From: Paraglomus brasilianum
Taxonomy: Eukaryota
Reading direction: 5' to 3'
Length of the DNA stretch: 64,000 nucleotides
Assembly (NCBI GenBank): GCA_910592345.1
Contig: CAJVPI010000043.1
Location: forward strand, 1 to 64,000
The notes under the pieces were generated by a model that did no database searches, was not told the origin of the DNA, and worked only from the letters and a program-made list of their open reading frames with translations. A program made the translations under genes and the position numbers. Shown here one piece after another: positions 17,781-47,879 of this stretch (position 1 is the stretch's first letter; each line of letters opens with the position of its first letter).

Positions 17781-18858
17781 TAAACATTATGCTATTTCTA
17801 TCTATTATTAAGCTATCCCTTGTTGGTTAGTACACTAATGCCAAGCATTACATATGGTCTGACCGAACGTGTGCATGTTATATGACCTGATCTTTTAATT
17901 GCAATTCTCATTTGCTTCAGTCTATTGCAAGTAGTAACTAAACAATCACAGTCAATTGAGACAGCCAACCCATTTTAGAACAAAGAGAATTTACGATAGG
18001 AGATATAATTCGTCGTTTAGATGAGTTGGTAGAAAAGTTAAAGCGCCAAACTTCATTAACAGAGTATAAAATTTCTTGTACTGCTAAACTAAAAATGCAT
18101 ATATCCCCAAAAAGTCTCTGTCCCGAAGTTGGGGTATAAACGATGGACAGTATGGCGTAATGTATGTGTCACACTACAACTCATATTCTACTATATATAG
18201 GACGGCGTGTATTCTTTACCATTGGTTTTATTGCAAATTCACACTCCTTTATGCATAAATAACAACATTTATACTTATACGGTAGTGTGCGACAACGTTT
18301 AATAAAATCAAACATTAACCAATTGGTCCATCAATACGCGTCATTTTTCATCATCGAGCACAATTATTTATCAAGGGTTGCTATCAGTTGTACCAATTTC
18401 TGATTCAAATGCATGGAAAGAACCGGCCAAGTTGCGTCTGGGTGCATAGAGTATATGAGTATATGAGCATTCACGTTCCGCATCTGAACGACTCGGCAGT
18501 GAAGAGATCCCGGCCGGATCTGAGAGTGGGTCATATACATAAGGGATGCCCGGAACATCTTCTTTTTTTATTACACCGCCCTTTGGCTACGGAAAAGACG
18601 GTTTGGTAAGTATAAGGTTAAATGCGCATTGCTTTACGATTAAACAAACGCTATTTCTTTCTGTTTTTCTTCCTTGGTGGACGTGGAAGGGTTTGAGGGA
18701 CTGATTCGGTGTCTACTTAGCTACCTGTTAATTTGAATTGTTGTGACGACAACTTAATGTAATTTTTATAACAACAGGTAATTATAATAATTGAAAAAGT
18801 AGGGGAAAAAACTTGAAATATTGTAAAATGATGAAAAAAATTTAATCGAAACTATTTA

Positions 18859-19118
18859 CCGTATTCCTCCGACATGTGTACCCGGGGCATTCCTCTAGTT
18901 CATTTAGTACCTATAATGGGTATATATCTTGAGATTTATTTATTTTCAAAATTTGAATTTTAATTGGCTGTTTATTGGCACGTTATTAGTAGGGTACAAC
19001 TCACGGGGGGTATATATGCTGGAGGAATACCGTAACTAATGCCCGGTATAAATCAAAATTTGGCATTCGAAATTGCAGGGTATAGCTCACAGGGGGTATA
19101 CATGTCGGAGGAATACGG
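18859..19118. mobile_element. Tc1/mariner-superfamily MITE with CCGTA termini (260 bp)
   Basis: TA|CCGTATTCCTCCGACATG ... CATGTCGGAGGAATACGG|TA, a perfect 18-bp TIR. An internal degenerate copy of the right end lies at ~18991-19033. Confidence 0.9.
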
Positions 19119-22092
19119 TAATTGGTTTTATCTAACTACAGATGTAATCGTATAATGTTATAACAATATGTACATAATAAACGATGTATTTCTTATATGA
19201 CAATAGTCAAACATTGACTACAGCAATAACATTAACAGAGGCTTACCTTATAATTAGTACCATAACTAATTTGTAATTTGGAATTCAGTCAAACTTCGGA
19301 AAACCGGACCAATATCGTAAAATCAAAAAAAAAATTCCCAATTCTCTTACTACCTAATTAATGCTAATACGTTAGATTTTGAAACTTCGATAATTAACTT
19401 CTTTGGCTACTCTTAATACATCAATAGCTATAATAAAGTTACCTGAGAATTCCATCTGCCAAGCGAAAATGTGGGCCGATTGCTATAATTAACGATTCTA
19501 TTATCTCATGATCTCTGTTGGCTTTTTACGTAATATCTTCTGATCATCGCAACTGTCTCGTCAAGACTATCTATTTTATAGCATTTATTTGGTCGGGTTA
19601 TTTAAATAACATACTGAGTCATCGACACGAGATAAATGTTGATTGCGCGGGTGTGGTCGTGGGTACTACACCAACACTCCCAGATTCGGTAGGAAAGCTT
19701 CGCGGTGTCGGACTGTTCTGTAATAGGGCACTTATACTGTTATTCTCTATGGAAATTAGCACGGGTATTCTTCACTCCAACTTTTTCTGGAGGAAGCGAT
19801 TGCTACAATTCTCAATTTGCGGTTAAGTTTGCCGTCTCTTGCTTTGAAACTTTTGTGGAACAAATTTGGATGAGTAAGCACAGATAATTCCCAGGACACA
19901 AAACGATGTCTCGAAAAATCGATAGAGAACATTCCATCAACTGCACCAAGATCGATCTACAGAATAAACATTATTTGTTACTCAAGCGCATCATTCCATT
20001 AGATTTCTACAATTGTACAATTTCATCATTAAGTGATCGCCGTGTTGTAACGCCAAATGATACAATAATATGATATAATCATTAATAAAATAATATTTAC
20101 TGTTTACAATATATAAAAAAAAGTTTTTAATTCAATTATGCAGTTGATCGACGAACATTTATTAGAAAAGACAGAATAGGGAAAGTAAGAAAAAATCAGC
20201 CCAAAAAGACCGCCCTGTAGTAGTCAGTAAATGGAAAACGATCGAGTCAATCCGACCCTTCACTGCCTCCCGTCTGCGATGAGAATGTATAATCACGTTA
20301 CACTATTTATCGTAAAGCATCTTATTCTGAGCGGTTTGCTGCATATATTGACCAACTTCTCAAGAGTTTGAAATACAGAAATAGTGGGAAGAGGTAAAGT
20401 GTTTTTTGAGATCAGTACGGTCTAACAGGCCGAGCTCCGATTTCGGACGTGTCCGAAAATCGCGTAACCTGGCGGTTACACGTATCTTGATAAATTATTG
20501 GTTGGAATTTGGTAGCACAGAAAATTGATCTGCCGATCGTACGTGTAAAGTATAGCTGACTCGTTACAGATCTCGATTCTGGTGTCATGCTTTGGCGTAA
20601 ATTGGCAATAGAGGTAATACAAGATGACCAAAGGTGCGTATAAACGAAGTGATGGAATTCGTACGTAACTAACATAATATACCGCCCAGGGCAATCAATA
20701 ACTTAAACTGTTATAAATAGCCGAAAGTTTTCGTCGCCCACTTTTCATCCCTCCGCCGAGTCCTCGCAGTAAATAGGCTAACATAAACAACCTGACTATT
20801 ATAATAAAAGTCATAACAATAAGATTATGCGTATACCTGACATCTGTTGCAAGAAAAAAAAACCGGTTAATAGAATAACAAAACTCTTTATACTCTTTCT
20901 TAGTTTAGTCTTGAGGTATTAACCGCCGAGCGTAACCTCGTTGAATACAACCATAGGACTATATCTTTGTCACAGGCTAACGATATCCCTAAATAATATC
21001 AGAGTCTTCCGGTTCAGTAAATTATCCAGCAATAATAATTATAAACACTCACCAATAAATTGATGAACAAAGTTAACGGTCGAATATCTTCCAAGAGAAA
21101 TTTCCAATCATCCAACGTGAGATGCGGAGGTTGAGTCACTCCTTCGGTGTGACAAGTGGAATAACAACATACTATCAAATGGCATGTAACTATGGAAATC
21201 TGTATGTGTGTATATTGCGTGTTGCAAGCATCTTGGTTAGTGTTAGACTGTACTTTGGTGGCTATATGACTGAAAAATAAAGCTTGAAAACAGGTAAATT
21301 CCAAGGCCAGTATTATAATAATAGCTTTCCCTTACATACGGGAATCTGAAGTGAGTATATATTCTATTCTTGAATATAATTATTTGCGTCGGTTATGAAT
21401 TTGCCCCATTTCTCAACTATGTATATATATATATATATGCGGACTAATGTAAATCGCCTTGGAACAATTGTTTAACATTGGATTCCAAACATGTCAGGGT
21501 CTTTTTGTGTACATCAGCCAATAAGAAAGAATAAATACTAAGTGCTGACCATCTATTATACTCAGTCTCAGGTGCTTCTTAGTTGGTTATGTTTTTTTAG
21601 CTATATTATAATAGCTTTACCGGACAATCCTCGGTAATAATTATTATTGTTATATTATCGCTTTTCAAATTTGCACAAAACTCTGCTATTAACTTTTTTT
21701 CGAAGGTAACAATAACATGTGAAGACAAACAAAAACCCTGTAGCTTCTGCAAGTCAGCGGTTGTTAATATTGATTTGTTTAACTGATTAATAATGGGATC
21801 GAGAATATAAACTGTTAGTGGATGATTATGAAACAACGACAATGTACAAGGTACTGGTCATTGTGTGTAACATGCTTACCATTGTAATTTTATTGGCTGC
21901 TAATTACCTTTGTTCTATTTTCGTTGTCTCGAAAAAGATTTGATCTTTATTAGGCGCGCTTGTAGTTGACCACTATTTATAGCGCTGTACCATTCAATAA
22001 TAGTGAAACGGTTACAATTTTCTTAATCAACACATGTTTGTGTCAAGCATGAAGTAAGTATTCAAAAAACACATTCTGATAAACAAACGAAA

Positions 22093-40903: not shown

Positions 40904-42498
40904 TCAAGTATCACTCCTATTTTGTTTGGCTTTGCCTAAATCTTTTTCGCGACGAGCGAGTCTACTGACAAGTTCTTTTTGAATTTCAGCTTGTTTCCTA
41001 GATTCAATTAGAGAGTCCACTGATCTCAAACCATTGACAATATCTCTTGTCTTTCCAAAATACACTTCTTGAAGAGAATTACGCATTTTCAGTTCCATAT
41101 CTTCAATTATACGTCCAATATTAGCGATATGGGCCTGTGGTTCATCGTACGGATAGTCAGCCTCAGTCTACACAAATGTTGCAATTTTAGAACCAATAAT
41201 GAGTCACAAGAATCAACTAAAGCGCATGTTTCACATAAATCCAGCAACTACAGAGCGCTTACTTGTCTTGTCATGCTGCCAGAGAGATTCAATTTGCCTG
41301 TTTCATCTCTATCGGTGATGGTATAAAGCATTATTGTTGATGTCAACTTGTAGTGTGCATTGCGTCCTCTCTCCGTAGCTCTAAAAACATGAATAGAATC
41401 CCATGCACCTTTCATCTTTCTTCCATCTTCGCCGACTGAAATGGTCAAGATCTAATACTTAGTATCCATCTGTGGAAATAGTGCAAGACACTAGGGAATA
41501 AAGTGATAGACATCTGACCTTTTTTGAAGAGAACAGCCCCAGCAAATGCATCATTATCATCATCCCAAAAATATGCAGAAGACACACCTTTTTCGTAATA
41601 CCTAAAATAACATAGTAAGATGAAAAACACGATAGGATCGAAAGATACGCACGCGTATGACCAACGTATCTTGAACCAAAACACCACTACTGAATCAATC
41701 CTTACATTTCTCTATACGTATCGAACGCTTCATTAGCAGCTATTTCTAGCCTGCGTAATTTGGGGGAAGGTACAGGGCTTTCCATTGAAGGAGGGTCATA
41801 CTCGTTGGACCAAGGAGATCTATAGCAATGGCAATGATAATTATGTCAATAAATATATAAGAGTTGTACTGTCATACATTTGGAACTAATTATCGTTTCA
41901 TTCGTCAGTAATAGTAGTAGTCACATTTTTTCAAACTTAGGAAGAGCGAGAAAATGACACTGAAATGTTGACCTACGATAACCTGAACGCGATGATAACA
42001 AAAACACACACACCACACACCATACACATACACGCAAACACCACGCACACGCACACGCACACGCACACCACACACACACACATATTGTATAAACTAGTTT
42101 CGATGTATTGCTTGAATTACTTACCTACACGAGTCACCGTCCCTGTTGAACTCGGATACAAGATAGTCTCTACCTTTAACCTTGCATCTCTGGACTTTAA
42201 GTGGCTGGTCAACATTGTTGAGTAAATCATCTTGAAGGTGAGGAGCTAGATCTATTAACTGGGACAAATTCTCTTCCATGTTCTGAGGTGGAAGACGGCG
42301 CATGAGGTCCAAAGCACAATCAAATTGGTCGCCCTGTATTTACAAACGCTTTACATAAGTAATAAAGTTATATACATATACTTTTTTTTCCCCTCATTTT
42401 GACTTTCACTTTTCACTTTCGCTCTTTTATATAGTATTATGAACTAGCTAGGCCTTTGCTTGCGTTGGTAGAATGACCACGTTCTCGTAACTGACCAT
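40904..42498 (-). CDS. CAP2: F-actin capping protein subunit beta
   Basis: [105 protein letters not shown]. The first coding exon is the ATG alone (42496-42498), followed by GTCAGT. Confidence 0.97.
42003..42082. repeat. CA-rich microsatellite inside a CAP2 intron
   Basis: (CA)n/(CACACG)n run. Confidence 0.85.
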
Positions 42499-44098
42499 CT
42501 TGTGTGTCATTAACTTTTGAAAAAATTTCTGAATCGATGACAATTGTGCAGTTTCTGGGCAGAGATACCCTGTGCCTGCTGTAGGTAATAATCTATGGGT
42601 CTGGTGGCAAAAGGGGGAGATCGTATTGGTGGCCGCAAAGTCATTCACGAATGATCGGTCGCGATTGTTTCTCACGACATCTCGTGCCATGACTATTTAT
42701 ACAAACAGACAAGGGAAAGCACCATGAAAAGGATGATAAGAAGCAGAGATTTTTTTTTTGCTCCGCTTCTACATCATTATGTTCCGAAATTGAATGATGC
42801 ATTGCCACGTTGTGCGATGTCTAAACTTTGTATATGTTTTGGATCGAAGCAAAAATGGGAGCGCACAGAATAAAGGGCGTTTGTACGCTATTGTTTAGAT
42901 TGGAATACTGATGTAATGACAGGTTTCGAACAGTTTGGTCCTGCATACATGATTGATCGTCCCACTATCTGCCCCTTTTTTTTAAGATGAGTGGGGTTTT
43001 TTGTTTGTATCTACATCGCATCGCTGTAGCATCTGACGATGTTGCCTCTTGTATAACATTGATTAAGATGCATGGGGAAGAGGGAGTCAGGCAAGGTTTA
43101 AGTAATATTGCCAGTAATAAATACCAGCCTGAACATCATTGTCCTGTCACAGTTACTTGCACAATAAATCCGGTTTGATAAAATATCCCATTGTAAGGGA
43201 GAAACAAATGATCCAAATTCGTAACAACAATGAGATAATATAATTCACCGATCTGTGTTTTCGCTCGTGAATTAGATACTAGCAATAACTTTCTTATAAA
43301 AGGGGCCACTAGGGCTATATTAAAAGCAAGTATATACTGGATGTCAAAAAATCAACCTTCGAGCTACAGTATGGTAACATATCAATAGTACTTTTCTCCG
43401 GAGAGAATCAAGGCTCCATCAAGCAATGCCCGGAGAAAGATTCCCCGAGCGCCATTTTCATCTCGATCCATTACAGTTCCACAATTCCGGCACTTGTACA
43501 CCTCGGACCCTCCTATTTTTGAACAGCTGCAAGTTTTGGTATAGTAATAGGCCTCGTTTTGGATAATAACACGAACCCCTAATTCTTCTGCTTTAGCCAC
43601 CAGGCGGTGGCGAAATTGATATTAATAGTGGCCCCAGCAGAGCATTTGAGAACCGTTTTTCGTGTTATTTTTCTTGTTTTTCGATTTATCATATTCGACA
43701 CCTCAAAAGGAGGGATGATAACGGCATCGAATTTGCGAGTGAAAAATGCGACACTTTTTTTATAAAGTTCGCTTTGCAGGTGTTTGACTTTTCGTCGCAT
43801 CCAAGAGATTGCCTTATCAAGTCGCGAGGCCTGTTTCTTCTTACGTTTCGAGCCAGTTTGTCCTTTACAGAAAGGAGATTGCCCATGTCGTATTACCTAC
43901 GCCTCTTTGGTGGGAGAGTACCAGGTGAGGGGTGTACAAACGCCAGGATCGATGGAAACTGCATGAATATCCGCTTGGGTTTCGCGAAGTTGTTTTTGCG
44001 TCTCGTAAACCCACGAAAATTTCCACTCGTTGGTTTTGCGAATATATGTAAGCTTACAGTCGGACGTTATTTTGTGAGGAACAGGTCACTTATTATTA

Positions 44099-44272
44099 CA
44101 AGTGGCTCTCGATATAAGAACCCTTTAATATAAGAAATTTTCGATATAAGAAAGTATTTTTGCTGGACCCGATTTAAAATCTTATAACAAATGACTCTCG
44201 TTATAAGAGATTTTCGATATAAAAAAGGAATTTGTTGGGCCCCGATCACTTTCGTATATCGAGAGCCACTTG
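44099..44272. mobile_element. MITE (174 bp) inserted in the Fanzor coding sequence
   Basis: TA|CAAGTGGCTCTCGATATA ... TATATCGAGAGCCACTTG|TA, a perfect 18-bp TIR. Removing it plus one TA restores the Fanzor frame. Confidence 0.93.
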
Positions 44273-44942
44273 TACTATTACGCCTTTTTTTTTCGAAATG
44301 AAGTGGCCACAAATCGCGTTTTTCGTTCAGAGTGATAATAGGCTTATGGCGGGGTGCGGAAAGCATGACATAGAATCGGTTCCACGTGGATTTTGAAAAG
44401 TTCTGCGCGCGAATACGAATTGTCATTGTTTGTCGCAAATCTTTTCGGAATCGAAATGACAAAGATGAACTTTTTTGCTGATTCGTGGTTGATCCTATAT
44501 TTTGATTGATCATCTCGTCCCTAGCAGTTAACGCTTTATCAATCGCCTCGTCGATAATGTTTGCAGGCGCCTTGCCCGTGTGTGCCTTGAAGGAGCATTC
44601 CAATACGCACGACTGTTCGCATGAATTTGTGTTCACCCCATACACATGATCTTTGTAGTCTCTTATCCTCACGCTCATTAACGTCTTTTCCTACACGAAC
44701 GTAAAGTTTAAGCTTATCTTCAATGGGTTGAGATTTTAGCCAAACCCGTCGTGATGGACCAGAATGCAAATTTTTTGTATGGAAATGGCGGTATCGACTC
44801 CAGCGGACAACTGCATTATAGGCATATCTTGACAAGCCCATCCACCGTTTCAATAGCTGTTTTTGAGGGCGATCTGGATATACTTTTATTGGCAGCGTAC
44901 AGTTGAGGGCTTTCAAGTGTTGTCGTTTGTTGTGTGCTGCTG

Positions 44943-45139
44943 TTATGTTGTCCTGATTTTGTACTTTTCCCCTTGTTTAGGGTTCTCGTCAGGCACTCTT
45001 CTTCCTTGCTCGCCGGAGGTCGCTTTGTTGATGAAAGCCATAAGTTTTGTAGTATGGGGGGAGTGGATGAGGTTGTGGCAGAGTCGGTCACAATGGGCAA
45101 CCACAATTCCGAGACCATGCTGCGACTTTTCCGTTCCAC
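44943..45139 (-). pseudogene. Remnant of an IS607 TnpA serine recombinase catalytic domain, overlapping the Fanzor 5' region
   Basis: IVVAHCDRLC resembles the resolvase motif VVVAHxDRLxRF. Restoring one A near 45107 gives VERKSRSMVSEIVVAHCDRLC. Confidence 0.6.
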
Positions 45140-45382
45140 TTACGTTTATAGGTTGCGGAGCTGACGAGTTATTCGAAGGTTGCGGAGCTGAGGACCTCCT
45201 TTTGTATGGACCCTTTTTTGGCGGCGGCGGCGGCGGTGGTGTTGTTGTTAGCACTGAGGGGAGAGATTATGTGTTTATGATTTGGATTTTCAAATGAGCA
45301 AAATATTGCAATGGTTAAAAGAGCATGGGGGATAATGTCTTTAAATATGTTTATGGTTGTCGGCATTTGAATGGCGGAACCG

Positions 45383-45470
45383 AAAACATGCATAAAACAT
45401 GCAATCTTATATGGAGACGCGCATAAAACGTGCAATCTTATATGGAAGCCTACGCGCATAAAACATGCAA
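45383..45470. repeat. Three direct repeats GCATAAAAC(A/G)TGCAA(TCTTATATGGA) upstream of the TnpA/Fanzor region
   Basis: Copies start at 45390, 45421 and 45456, with a partial copy at 45383. Confidence 0.85.
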
Positions 45471-46199
45471 ACACAGACTATATGATGGATCGCGGTCACA
45501 AATCGTTATTATTGGTCACATTTGCTGCACACGTATCTTAATAGACACTTGCAATTCCATGCAATTCGAATTTTTTTGATGCGTTCCGTTGTCTTTGTAA
45601 ATATATTAGAGGGTTAAACAAAATTGATATTAATTTTACATTAACTCCGATTATAACATCGTAAAATCCATCCTAAATTTTCTATTAATTAAAATTATTA
45701 CGATAATAAAACAGCCATCTCCACAAAAATCAAAATGCCTTCGCGTTTTGAAATCACGTGCATGTGACAATTATCACCTGTCAAGAAAATATTTTGCCTC
45801 TGATATGAGCACTATTACTGTATATGCAAAATCAGCATATAATCATTTATTTCCCCAATACAGATATGAACACACTGGTTAAAAGTCAGTACTGTAGTTG
45901 CGTTTTTTTGAGATACCCGGGATACGTCCATTCAGTTGCCTCAAAGTATTGTTGGGCTGTAAAATGATAATAATAAGACCATGTCAAGTCAAAACGAAAA
46001 ATTAAGTGATTGACATACCAGCATGCTTGTATGTAGTAATGAAGAGAATTTTATTCATTGCCAGTATAAATTGGTTGTGGACAAGTAATGTCTTTAAATT
46101 CGTCTCTAACAATATTATGATAAAGATATTCTTTTATAATCCAAAGGAGGAGGGGTTGGTACCAGGAACCAGGATGGAAAAGGATTTAATTTCTTTGGC

Positions 46200-47480
46200 A
46201 ATTTCGGAAACACTTGTTTTTCTAGTTTTCAACAAATTAAATTCTGCATAAGCACCATTAGCAACCAGCTGGGTTTTGACAAATAGAAAATGCTGATATT
46301 TTTGCAAACCATTTAAATTTTTAAAAAAAATTCCCAATATAAATATAGCATTAAGATCTGAATATCGAAACCCTTTCCATTGCCATAACACTGAGTCTTG
46401 TTTAATCCAACTGTAGTTAATTTTTTCACAACCTCAACGATATGATCCACGCAATCTACTGTTGTCTTTCTATAGAACTTTTTAATTAATCCAAAACTTC
46501 CAACACACTTGAATTTAGTGCGTCCAGGTACCATAAAATTTAATTCAGTACTTTCATAATAACCGCCAATTACTAAATATAGGTAAAATCAAATGGTAGC
46601 ATTATTCTTATTCTGACCTCCTGCATTATCACAAGTAATCTTTAGACATTTTTGGCCTTTATTAAATTTTTTTATTCCGCCGAATACCATGTTCAGTGTG
46701 CCATTAGGGCCTTTTCTTATAATTTCGTCCTCATCAAGTACGTAATTAATTTGCTCGCGTACTGCTTCATCTTGAATACCAAATAAATGCACTTTACGTG
46801 GACCAAGATAATAGATCTTACTTACTTGTTGATCGGAATGGGGCCGTAACTGTTAATGAGCAGCTTTGCCTCTTGTTATAAAATAATCATTTCTGTTGTT
46901 CTGCTAATTTCGTATTTTTATTGTAATAATTTCTCTTCGACTTGGCTGTTCTTTGTATTTTTTCAGTAAATCTTTCGCTTCTTTTTCCTTACGAGAATTT
47001 CCATTCCGAAAATGTTCACATTAATCTGTTCTTGAGTTCATAATTTGAATATAAAGTGTTAATTGGCGCCATAACTTGCGGGATGCGTCATATTTTAACA
47101 ATTTCAACGTGCTACCGTTTTCGAGACCTGCAATAAAATCACGATATACAGTAACTCGATTTTTTGCTGGTAAAAATACGAGCGATTTGAGTAATGTGAG
47201 TAACATTTCTACCATAAACACGCGGTATTAAATGCTTTAACGGGACACTCTTTTCTCGAAAAAAATAAACGCAAGTTGAACTTTAGCTAAACCACCCAAA
47301 TTAGAGCAATGAAAATCAGAAGCAAACGAAGATGGGCCAATTACACGTGGTTACTCTCGGTTGAACCAACCTTGATCAAAGAAAAACGTGGAAATGACGG
47401 CATTATCACCATTAAAAATTTAAGATGCCCCAACATTATGGCCAAAGAATTCTTTTATTTAGCATTATTCTTTTATTGGA
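46200..47480 (-). pseudogene. Decayed Sola-like DDE transposase
   Basis: Fragments HLFGIQDE..NYVLDEDE..KGPNGTLNMV..LKITCDNAGGQNKNN and FMVPGRTKFKCVGSFGLIKK match the DNxxGQNKN / GHTKFxxDxxFGxxK pattern of Sola-type transposases. Many frameshifts. Extent approximate. Confidence 0.7.
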
Positions 47481-47879
47481 TAAATGTGTCATTCCTTTGC
47501 ATTGTTTGAACCGTATATCTACTCGAAGTTGACCCCACACTCGACGAGTGACACAGTGACATTCTTATCAACATTTCGTTTTTGTAGGATGTAAACATTC
47601 CCCTTTACGTCTACTACATTACACAAATATAATAATAACGAAAGAATCGGTCTAACTTAATTGGGCCTTAACAGGTGAAAGTTATTGTTTATTTGGACGA
47701 GAACCGATGTAAATAAACTAGCCAGGGGGTCAGACGCCACATTCTGGAGCTAAAACGTGTGTCCGCTATTGGATATCTTTGAAGAAACAAATCAAGAGTA
47801 AATAAGTAAACCTTTTTTGATTACAGAGAGCTATTAACAAACTTTTGCAAAGTCATTATCATACATAAATCTTATACTC

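Follow-up and report, generated by a model that had tools for sequence, protein, structure and literature searches.

Apparent Remnant of an IS607-Type Transposon with a Fanzor2 Pseudogene in a Paraglomus brasilianum Contig, and the Predicted Anatomy of Its Family

The first 64,000 nucleotides of contig CAJVPI010000043.1 of the Paraglomus brasilianum assembly GCA_910592345.1 (the whole stretch analyzed, here called the window) contain, on the minus strand between about 43382 and 45253, what appear to be the remains of an IS607-type transposon with a tnpA gene and a gene for a nuclease of the Fanzor2 type, predicted to be RNA-guided in its intact form. A miniature inverted-repeat transposable element (MITE) lies inside the nuclease gene. 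The features are as follows, with identities given to P0010, a related protein of 469 residues (HTH, helix-turn-helix; ORF, open reading frame).

About 45008..45253, minus strand: IS607 tnpA remnant, catalytic domain with poly-Thr/Ala linker, KKG, and IVVAH-DRL
44578..44976, minus strand: Fanzor2 piece 1, WED start with HTH_OrfB_IS605 (PF12323) and REC start, 78% identity
44283..44576, minus strand: Fanzor2 piece 2, REC to WED, in-frame indels, reaching the MITE, 70% identity
44099..44272, no strand assigned: MITE, 174 bp, 18-nt perfect terminal inverted repeats (TIRs), inside the Fanzor gene
43909..44094, minus strand: Fanzor2 piece 3, WED end and RuvC-I with SIDPG, premature TGA at 44088-44086
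43651..43886, minus strand: Fanzor2 pieces 4-5, bridge helix and RuvC-II with IIPPFE, 40-nt and 10-nt deletions
43382..43648, minus strand: Fanzor2 piece 6, relocated Glu, damaged zinc finger, and RuvC-III RD-NGARG (PF07282)
43395..43445, minus strand: predicted 5' part of the omegaRNA scaffold, within the ORF end, with a GATGG strand at 43420-43416
43371..43390, minus strand: possible right-end remnant, matching locus L001 at 17 of 20 nt

The nuclease gene (about 43395-45140) survives as six pieces with five frameshifts, two stops, and the 174-bp MITE. An initial annotation had proposed that frameshifted fragments here rebuild a nearly complete nuclease of the TnpB fold, and this holds: the motifs are present on the minus strand, Pfam recognizes HTH_OrfB_IS605 (E 8e-6, over 44542-44976, a TnpB-like N-terminal architecture) and Cas12f1-like_TNB (E 1e-15, over 43385-43621), and four tblastn high-scoring segment pairs (58-78% identity) match residues 1-461 of P0010. 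The curated Pfam cut-off was passed by two of the eight minus-strand element fragments scanned. The Asp codon of SIDPG, the RuvC-I motif with DPG, lies at 43950-43948; IIPPFE (43719-43702) has Pro where canonical TnpB carries the RuvC-II Glu; the relocated Glu of NEAYYYTKTC is encoded at 43555-43553; and the second Asp codon of DRDENGARGI is at 43462-43460. All three catalytic codons are still present, but split among frames or behind stops. The 79-residue last piece (43382-43648) has 9b0l as its best PDB match and, used as a query, finds 62 of 142 candidate proteins at E <=1e-8, the best 70-81% identical; the three named proteins among these matches come from Diversispora epigaea, Cetraspora pellucida, and a planctomycete. 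A tblastn search with P0010 found no second Fanzor copy in the window.

Alignment of the window copy to six close loci places frameshifts near 44577 (+1), 43909 (+2), 43889 (-40), 43852 (-10), and 43649 (-1), premature stops at 44088 (TGA) and near 43627 (TAA, from a 6-nt duplication), and several further in-frame indels. Two catalytic-end features of the initial annotation are present in altered form. The downstream glutamate is there, but a 3-nt duplication adds an extra Tyr and sets the Glu seven residues, not six, ahead of the first Cys; the zinc finger is recognizable, but its first CxxC has been turned to CxC by a 12-nt deletion. The window copy has neither an intact C4 zinc finger nor an open frame. 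There is no canonical RuvC-II Glu in the family: that site reads IIPPF, and relatives carry the alternative, relocated Glu in EAYTSKTC.

The MITE that had been reported inside the gene is confirmed at 44099-44272. Its inverted repeat has three matches where 0.02 are expected by chance, and its flanks are compatible with a TA duplication plus a 6-nt slip or with an 8-bp duplication; a MITE-free joint in run X5 skips 182 nt, and other MITE contigs fit only from the TA at 44097. Three near-identical viral contigs share the terminal motif of the MITE, a likeness judged to be chance because they hold no second TIR. Contigs of run X1 cover 43692-44017, 44224-44608, and 44672-45205 without differences and at flank-like depth, so the lesions in those spans are not assembly noise; X1 may be the source of the assembly and hence not independent.

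The tnpA remnant extends the element beyond the reach of the initial annotation (43382..45139), which covered the Fanzor pieces correctly and missed the TnpA sequence up to about 45253. The remnant carries several deletions; it matches L002 at 74% over 151 nt (blastn, E 2e-21) and is hit in tblastn by TnpA queries (E 0.001-0.008) and by the Fanzor N-terminus (E 3e-7), which share bases in differing frames. Its +1 frame corresponds to what remains of the Fanzor2 N-terminal extension (WNG..LWLP..QNLWLS), so that both overlapping frames are still recognizable. The left end and the HTH part of TnpA were found neither by local alignment in 45200-47500 nor by blastn over all 64 kb; in 45200-47500, 5, 130, and 162 of 200 shuffles scored as high as the three left-end probes. 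At the right end, the GATGG strand at 43420-43416 is kept, and about 40 nt of scaffold, the partner CCATC strand, and the terminal CCATCCG are lost. The element is a truncated IS607-type transposon: the left end is gone, and little of the guide-RNA end remains. A stretch at 21608-21657 was rejected as a right-end copy: its match is 74% over 50 nt (E 0.001) without CCATCCG, and it is chance or a very old fragment. At the expected site of the tnpA start and left end, 45386-45470 holds three tandem copies of 19-31 nt.

The combined evidence supports identification of the window gene as a Fanzor2 pseudogene of IS607 origin. In the profile searches that the initial annotation had called for, a profile of 20 close relatives (A1) ranks 9b0l, the mimivirus nuclease ApmFz2, first in PDB (E 5e-32), ahead of Cas12f (2e-15) and ISDra2 TnpB (3e-10), and a profile of 66 rows (A3) reaches E 7e-61 over residues 77-509 of 9b0l, with D342, P343, and G344 conserved. 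Foldseek likewise puts 9b0l at the top (E 2.6e-21) when given an AlphaFold model of L002, a relative with an open frame (pLDDT 77, pTM 0.75); SpuFz1 entries take ranks 32-41 (8gkh 36th, E 1.2e-6; TM-score about 0.3) and PpFz1 ranks 50. VIA-align gives 9b0l a Z of 21.3 (rmsd 4.8, 432 aligned), and among its top rows only 9b0l aligns the N-terminal extension. Likewise, profile A2 aligns to 9b0l 78-171, whereas TnpB chains align only from the WED strand. Canonical IS200/605 TnpB features (D-phi-G, the canonical Glu, a Y1 TnpA) are replaced here by DPG, the relocated Glu, and a serine TnpA.

Trees were built from 121 rows (FastTree) and 43 rows (IQ-TREE, LG+G4, quick), after dereplication from 251 to 117 rows, addition of four viral rows, and exclusion of the partial L015; they hold no Fanzor1 or characterized Fanzor2 rows. 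The window copy is placed next to P0004; both belong to a fungal-type clade (SH 99) that includes the Diversispora and Cetraspora proteins and lies within the radiation of DPG/relocated-Glu nucleases, apart from 12 named bacteria and canonical TnpB. The phylogeny proposed in the initial annotation is thereby supplied as regards canonical TnpB, and the Fanzor2 labels on relatives are the published ones. The deep branches are weak and long branches meet, so that the trees point to no donor. Beyond the query loci, two viral scans for further Fanzor2 or Fanzor1 members brought up a single near relative.

Fanzor1 and Fanzor2 have DPG and the relocated Glu in common, and the trees without Fanzor1 rows leave room for an alternative in which the gene is of Fanzor1 type or in which a eukaryotic TIR transposon has taken up a Fanzor (Fanzor2*). 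We consider this hardly credible. An IS607 tnpA is present in the family and in the window, in place of a Fanzor1-type carrier (eukaryotic DDE, Helitron, or Crypton); the HTH is present; the family aligns to ApmFz2 77-509 without the REC insertion of about 150 residues typical of Fanzor1; no Fanzor1 structure ranks above 32nd in Foldseek; the two element ends do not form inverted repeats; and the published tree puts close relatives with Fanzor2. Fanzor1 structures are also missing from the sequence-profile lists to E 10 and from the top 50 VIA rows, which is not counted as exclusion. The initial annotation's call of an IS607-derived Fanzor2 in a fungal chromosome is borne out by the rank of 9b0l in profile and Foldseek searches, the tnpA remnant, the relatives labelled FZ2, and the other copies in the sample described below.

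Family anatomy was read from related loci, found in scans that retained 80 of 459 confirmed metagenome stretches and 80 of 478 from GTDB and yielded 41 viral loci. The layout is left end, tnpA, Fanzor, right end, with a length of about 2.14-2.25 kb in complete copies. In L009, the upstream ORF carries the MerR (E 7e-7) and Resolvase (E 4e-17) domains of an IS607 TnpA; the window keeps a remnant of the catalytic domain only. A right end CCATCC[G/A] was identified in 22 of 38 loci examined (20 with G, two with A), 109-185 nt past the NGARG codon, with flanks that are unrelated among the 22 except for one duplicate pair; the remaining 16 are six loci without the C-terminal motif, four cut by a contig end, four of bacterial type, and two without an end in range. 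The left junction has CCG directly before T in seven of the 13 loci having upstream sequence and CCA before T in one. By inspection the ends are not inverted repeats, and CCG stands at both junctions, which agrees with IS607 elements, where TIRs and target-site duplications (TSDs) are lacking and one short motif marks both junctions. Multi-copy bacterial relatives have GG at both ends in place of CCG. From CCG at the left end and the logic of IS607 systems set out in PMC10711439, a 5'-CCG target-adjacent motif (TAM) is predicted for the family; the TAM measured for NlovFz2 is also 5'-CCG (Saito 2023, PMC10432273).

A predicted scaffold of about 125 nt occupies the right end. In it, a 5-mer starting at the Asp codon near the ORF end pairs with a 5-mer ahead of the terminal dinucleotide, in the versions GATGG/CCATC, GATAC/GTATC, GATTC/GAATC, and GATCA/TGATC. 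Of 95 distinct loci, 73 pair at position 4 and 81 at position 5, where shuffles average 45.6 and 51.4, and the sum was reached by none of 2000 shuffles; the 95 rows come from 201 loci after loss of 58 without the motif, 13 without GAT or an end, and duplicates, and the search pattern often caught an earlier ATC in fungal loci. Single folds recover the pairing in L001, L015, and L032 and in the centroid of L002, and not in L009; Rfam gave no matches in five loci and none in window positions 42400-47500. A right-end omegaRNA with covarying, pseudoknot-like pairing is a prediction for the family. Two loci show rearrangements: L032:20-175 is a stand-alone right end of L028 type, 5 nt upstream of the CCG before that element's left end, so elements may cluster or leave ghost omegaRNA ends, and in L011:507-839 part of tnpA is inverted (blastn, opposite strand).

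Among 92 loci whose tnpA is intact, 86 have a Fanzor/TnpB frame that overlaps it in +1 over more than 300 nt. This overlapping frame is under selection against stops: in 54 dereplicated loci (under 85% alike) it contains 7 stops within the overlap where 406 are expected under synonymous recoding. In the same loci the +2 frame has 352 stops (488 expected), and outside the overlap the +1 frame has 64 (49 expected). Only L005 and L009 among the 54 are fungal-type, with no stops where 4.0 and 8.0 are expected. The 30 loci obtained from three genomes included none that could serve as a canonical IS607 control for this overlap. PYW, LWLP, and SWF motifs are conserved in the overprinted stretch, whose profile aligns SWF to ApmFz2 78-91 with an E of 1.5e-10, a value that is not for the extension alone because the profile also takes in the WED start; Asn82 and Ser83 of ApmFz2 contact the pseudoknot of its omegaRNA (PMC11832414). 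Chlorovirus-like Fanzor2s (L096-L117), mostly without tnpA, retain a short KPWW/RPFW N-terminal motif, which is consistent with a requirement of the nuclease for the overprinted segment.

We found no published description of +1 overprinting of the Fanzor N-terminus on tnpA, although the bioRxiv supplements of Yoon may discuss it; the accessible text of Gilbert and Cordaux (2013; PMC3673617) states that the two ORFs of IS607 overlap and nothing further. With a Fanzor2-specific N-terminal domain overprinted on tnpA in a fungal nuclear family, one may ask how both proteins would be made by eukaryotic ribosomes. In ten loci read (four were skipped), the first ATG past that of tnpA is in +1 in L002, L003, L004, L008, L009, L017, L032, L033, and L043, and in +2 in L019. 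We rejected the idea that this reflects a fungal adaptation for leaky scanning: a +1 next ATG also occurs in 30 of 41 non-fungal loci, so the pattern is no evidence of adaptation. In L008:323-2278, tnpA and Fanzor are fused into one 652-residue frame by a frameshift past the overlap, and the Cetraspora protein P0035 likewise starts with TnpA sequence; such fusions may be decay products, gene-model artefacts, or a hint of programmed frameshifting.

The element lies among fungal genes, the two annotated neighbours being:

40907..42336, minus strand: CAP2 (F-actin capping protein beta) host gene, intron-containing, PF01115
49807..50328, plus strand: exon of a UBX-domain gene, PF00789, E 7e-7

The neighbourhood as a whole comprises the intron-containing CAP2, a CHZ chaperone, a UIM protein, and the UBX protein. 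The CAP2 exons are identical to P. brasilianum P0279 at 273 of 279 aligned residues and to P. occultum at 271 of 293, but to Geosiphon, Ambispora, Funneliformis, and Mucor at only 197-203 of 278-307. In a tree of 25 CAP2 proteins, a 96%-identical proxy falls with Glomeromycotina, apart from Mucorales (100/99), in a cluster that includes two Paraglomus proteins. These neighbours place the Fanzor2 in a eukaryotic genome, with reads supporting the CAP2 side only. There, an identical X1 contig begins in unique flank at 42750 and ends at 43422, having entered family-conserved sequence for 28 nt, short of the bridging standard of 31 letters; the next X1 contig toward CAP2 shares just 10 nt with it, in a poly-T, a gap that an X6 contig bridges. 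Soil runs X5-X7 have zero cover at 43259-43362 and are uninformative on the right junction. RNA records contain the region at shares of 0.06-0.11, which is not evidence of expression.

That no single record spans CAP2 to the element, and that no contig covers the left junction, would suit a bacterial pro-Fanzor IS607 (from an endosymbiont or contaminant) mis-assembled into the fungal contig, as would the best GTDB relatives, which share the layout at about 45-53% identity over the RuvC part. We judge such a mis-assembly very improbable. The relatives nearest in sequence (70-85%) group with the Diversispora and Cetraspora proteins, in a clade apart from the 12 named bacteria, the C-terminal signature is common to Geosiphon members, a eukaryote-type MITE sits within the gene, and the GC content of 0.39-0.42 equals that of the flanks. 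The identical X1 contig and the X6 contig bridging the poly-T toward CAP2 point the same way, and L015 lies amid fragments resembling long terminal repeat retrotransposons (chromodomain, RNase H, and integrase motifs, by eye).

The window is not the only source of this family in the sample. Of 245 X1 contigs placed, a set that includes copies of the MITE, 66 match at 99+%, 53 at 95-99%, 85 at 90-95%, and 41 under 90%. The element has a higher X1 depth than the flank does, individual lesions are missing from some variants, and 1522 nt are skipped at one joint; the sample therefore holds other, diverged, and partly deleted copies, whose number and intactness the contigs do not give.

We conclude that the window very probably holds a dead, 5'-truncated IS607 copy with tnpA and Fanzor2, likely in the nuclear genome of Paraglomus, whose intact kin are predicted to insert after 5'-CCG and to use a right-end guide RNA in cutting vacated sites. 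By analogy with IS607/TnpB biology (PMC10711439, PMC13565253), excision and insertion of the element by TnpA would involve crossover at a short motif inside CCG. Transcription reading past the right end into the flank would yield the omegaRNA, with the 3' flank as guide; Fanzor2 would then cut 5'-CCG plus guide match, that is, the empty donor site, and repair from an element-bearing copy would restore the element, as in the homing model of PMC13565253. With its protein, zinc finger, left end, and 3' pseudoknot strand broken, the window copy itself is incapable of these steps. As a fossil, its value is as an entry point to the family.

Several points weigh against this account. In the window, the right-end remnant (43371-43390) is not significant alone, being equalled by 37 of 500 shuffles; with that and the left end absent, no TAM can be read from this copy, which also departs from the strict Yoon pattern in its Glu spacing of 7 and its CxC. 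For the assignment to Fanzor2, VIA-align ties 9b0l with ISDra2 TnpB (8h1j; Z 20.6, rmsd 3.4, 348 aligned), and the case against Fanzor1 comes from profiles, fold, and published labels, the trees having no Fanzor1 rows. In the family, the left end is unreadable in five of the 13 loci, and L032, L033, and L043 are one subfamily; related bacterial loci dominate the covariation count, which relatedness inflates; given 17 right ends, RNAalifold produced only two 5' hairpins and did not recover the long-range pairing, and single folds have z from -0.6 to -4.3. Only three of the 92 overlap loci are fungal-type, one of them (L008) fused in frame 0. Most family loci are metagenome contigs, and uninterrupted genes are found in four of the 13 fungal-type loci that span the gene.

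That last fraction bears on whether the family is alive. It may instead be ancient debris, the product of a single entry and amplification, now inactive everywhere, with open relatives being recent survivors or belonging to other organisms in the metagenomes; we give this a chance somewhat short of even. Interruptions occur in nine of the 13 fungal-type loci that span the gene, most of the named Glomeromycota proteins are fragmentary or mis-joined models (e.g., P0035), 179 of the 245 X1 contigs are under 99% alike, with an internally deleted form present, and the changes of end from CCG to CCA (L003, L028, L033) fit CpG decay. Against debris stand L009, 2.1 kb long and complete with both ends, an open tnpA with the YARVS motif, and an open Fanzor of 596 residues; L005, with open tnpA and Fanzor; the open Fanzor ORFs of L002 and L051; proteins P0212, P0227, and P0240 (593-643 residues); and L032, L033, and L043, which share an element in differing flanks. 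The C4 zinc finger and open frame are intact in L002, L005, L009, and L051. It is thinkable, though we hold it to be rather unlikely, that arbuscular mycorrhizal fungi carry still-mobile IS607-Fanzor2 elements in which about 600 nt would encode both transposase and the guide-RNA-binding N-terminus of the nuclease, possibly from one mRNA by leaky scanning. If so, L009 or L005 would be active fungal Fanzor2 nucleases with a CCG TAM, whose CpG could be gated by host methylation. Our preferred reading of the window as a dead copy with intact kin makes a prediction that is testable because L009 is complete and four of 13 spanning loci are uninterrupted: the family ends, predicted CCG TAM, scaffold, and complete relatives allow a direct TAM and cleavage test of a fungal Fanzor2.

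The initial annotation had presented a fungal Fanzor2 as a surprise, which does not stand. Saito 2023 (PMC10432273) describes Fz2 as "found broadly in fungi", and its Supplementary Table 1 labels as FZ2 proteins of Geosiphon pyriformis (KAG9286232.1, KAG9289801.1), Diversispora epigaea (RHZ45176.1), and D. eburnea (CAG8448100.1). Yoon 2023 (PMC10711439) enters RHZ87106.1 (P0030) and Cetraspora CAG8580437.1 (P0035) as Fanzor in its Table S5 and has occurrences of 25 in Diversispora, 21 in Gigaspora, nine in Rhizophagus, and one in Paraglomus, and Bao and Jurka 2013 report four yeast Fanzor2 families. Fungal Fanzor2 is not new; this family is already in published tables, and the window copy therefore leaves the known range of Fanzor2 unchanged. 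Our analysis adds the anatomy of the family: the CCATCCG right end, the CCG-T left junction, the covarying pairing, and uninterrupted metagenome relatives. The Glomeromycota Fz2 rows, as available, state no ends, TAM, tnpA link, or omegaRNA. Read by eye, HAVSIDPG..PFTWYSPTKG and LILSGDHAG are signatures common to the Geosiphon rows and the window's subfamily; the single Paraglomus row of Yoon has another C-terminal signature, NGARNILLKYL, and the available table of Saito 2023 (PMC10432273) shows no Paraglomus row. Our searches by title found no paper on this family under Fanzor in arbuscular mycorrhizal fungi; they found no literature on IS607 transposons in Glomeromycota or TnpB in Paraglomus and, in the Fanzor literature as accessible, no characterized fungal Fanzor2.

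Among known systems, ApmFz2 (9B0L, PMC11832414) is the best sequence and Foldseek match, with the same triad of DPG, relocated Glu, and RD, a zinc finger, and an N-terminal extension to which the family SW motif aligns (residues 78-91). It differs in identity (about 22%) and host, the family being nuclear and fungal and the window copy a pseudogene, and the fungal family has REC/WED insertions and a poly-Pro N-terminus read from the tnpA linker. NlovFz2 of the protist Naegleria lovaniensis has a measured TAM equal to the family's predicted motif, which may be convergent, and an N-terminus (PFW..LW..WF) resembling the overprinted motif by eye only. Pro-Fanzors and bacterial IS607 elements with DPG and relocated Glu (Yoon 2023) share the tnpA-tnpB layout, the +1 overlap, and the GAT..ATC pairing, but have GG at both ends where the fungal family has CCG and form a separate clade. 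IS607EU elements (PMC3673617, PMC13565253) are likewise eukaryotic serine-recombinase transposons without TIRs or TSDs, including those of yeast and Ustilago; the accessible text of these two sources names none in Glomeromycota. A second Glomeromycota Fanzor2 family (NGARNILL[KR]YL) has Gigaspora, Ambispora, Rhizophagus, and Paraglomus rows, some with TnpA attached, in the tables of PMC10711439 and PMC10432273.

Other mobile-element remains were noted in the window. Degraded ORF pieces at 46000-46900 (minus strand) have a weak match to DUF7869 (E 0.024) and a CDNAGGQNKN motif, with a 21-nt inverted repeat around them (45692-45712 and 46912-46932); they are probably another dead transposon adjoining the missing left end. 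A second MITE of about 280 bp (18849-19128) has 35-nt inverted repeats (91%), and a remnant of a DDE_1 (pogo-like) transposase lies at 138-746 on the plus strand (E 4e-4).

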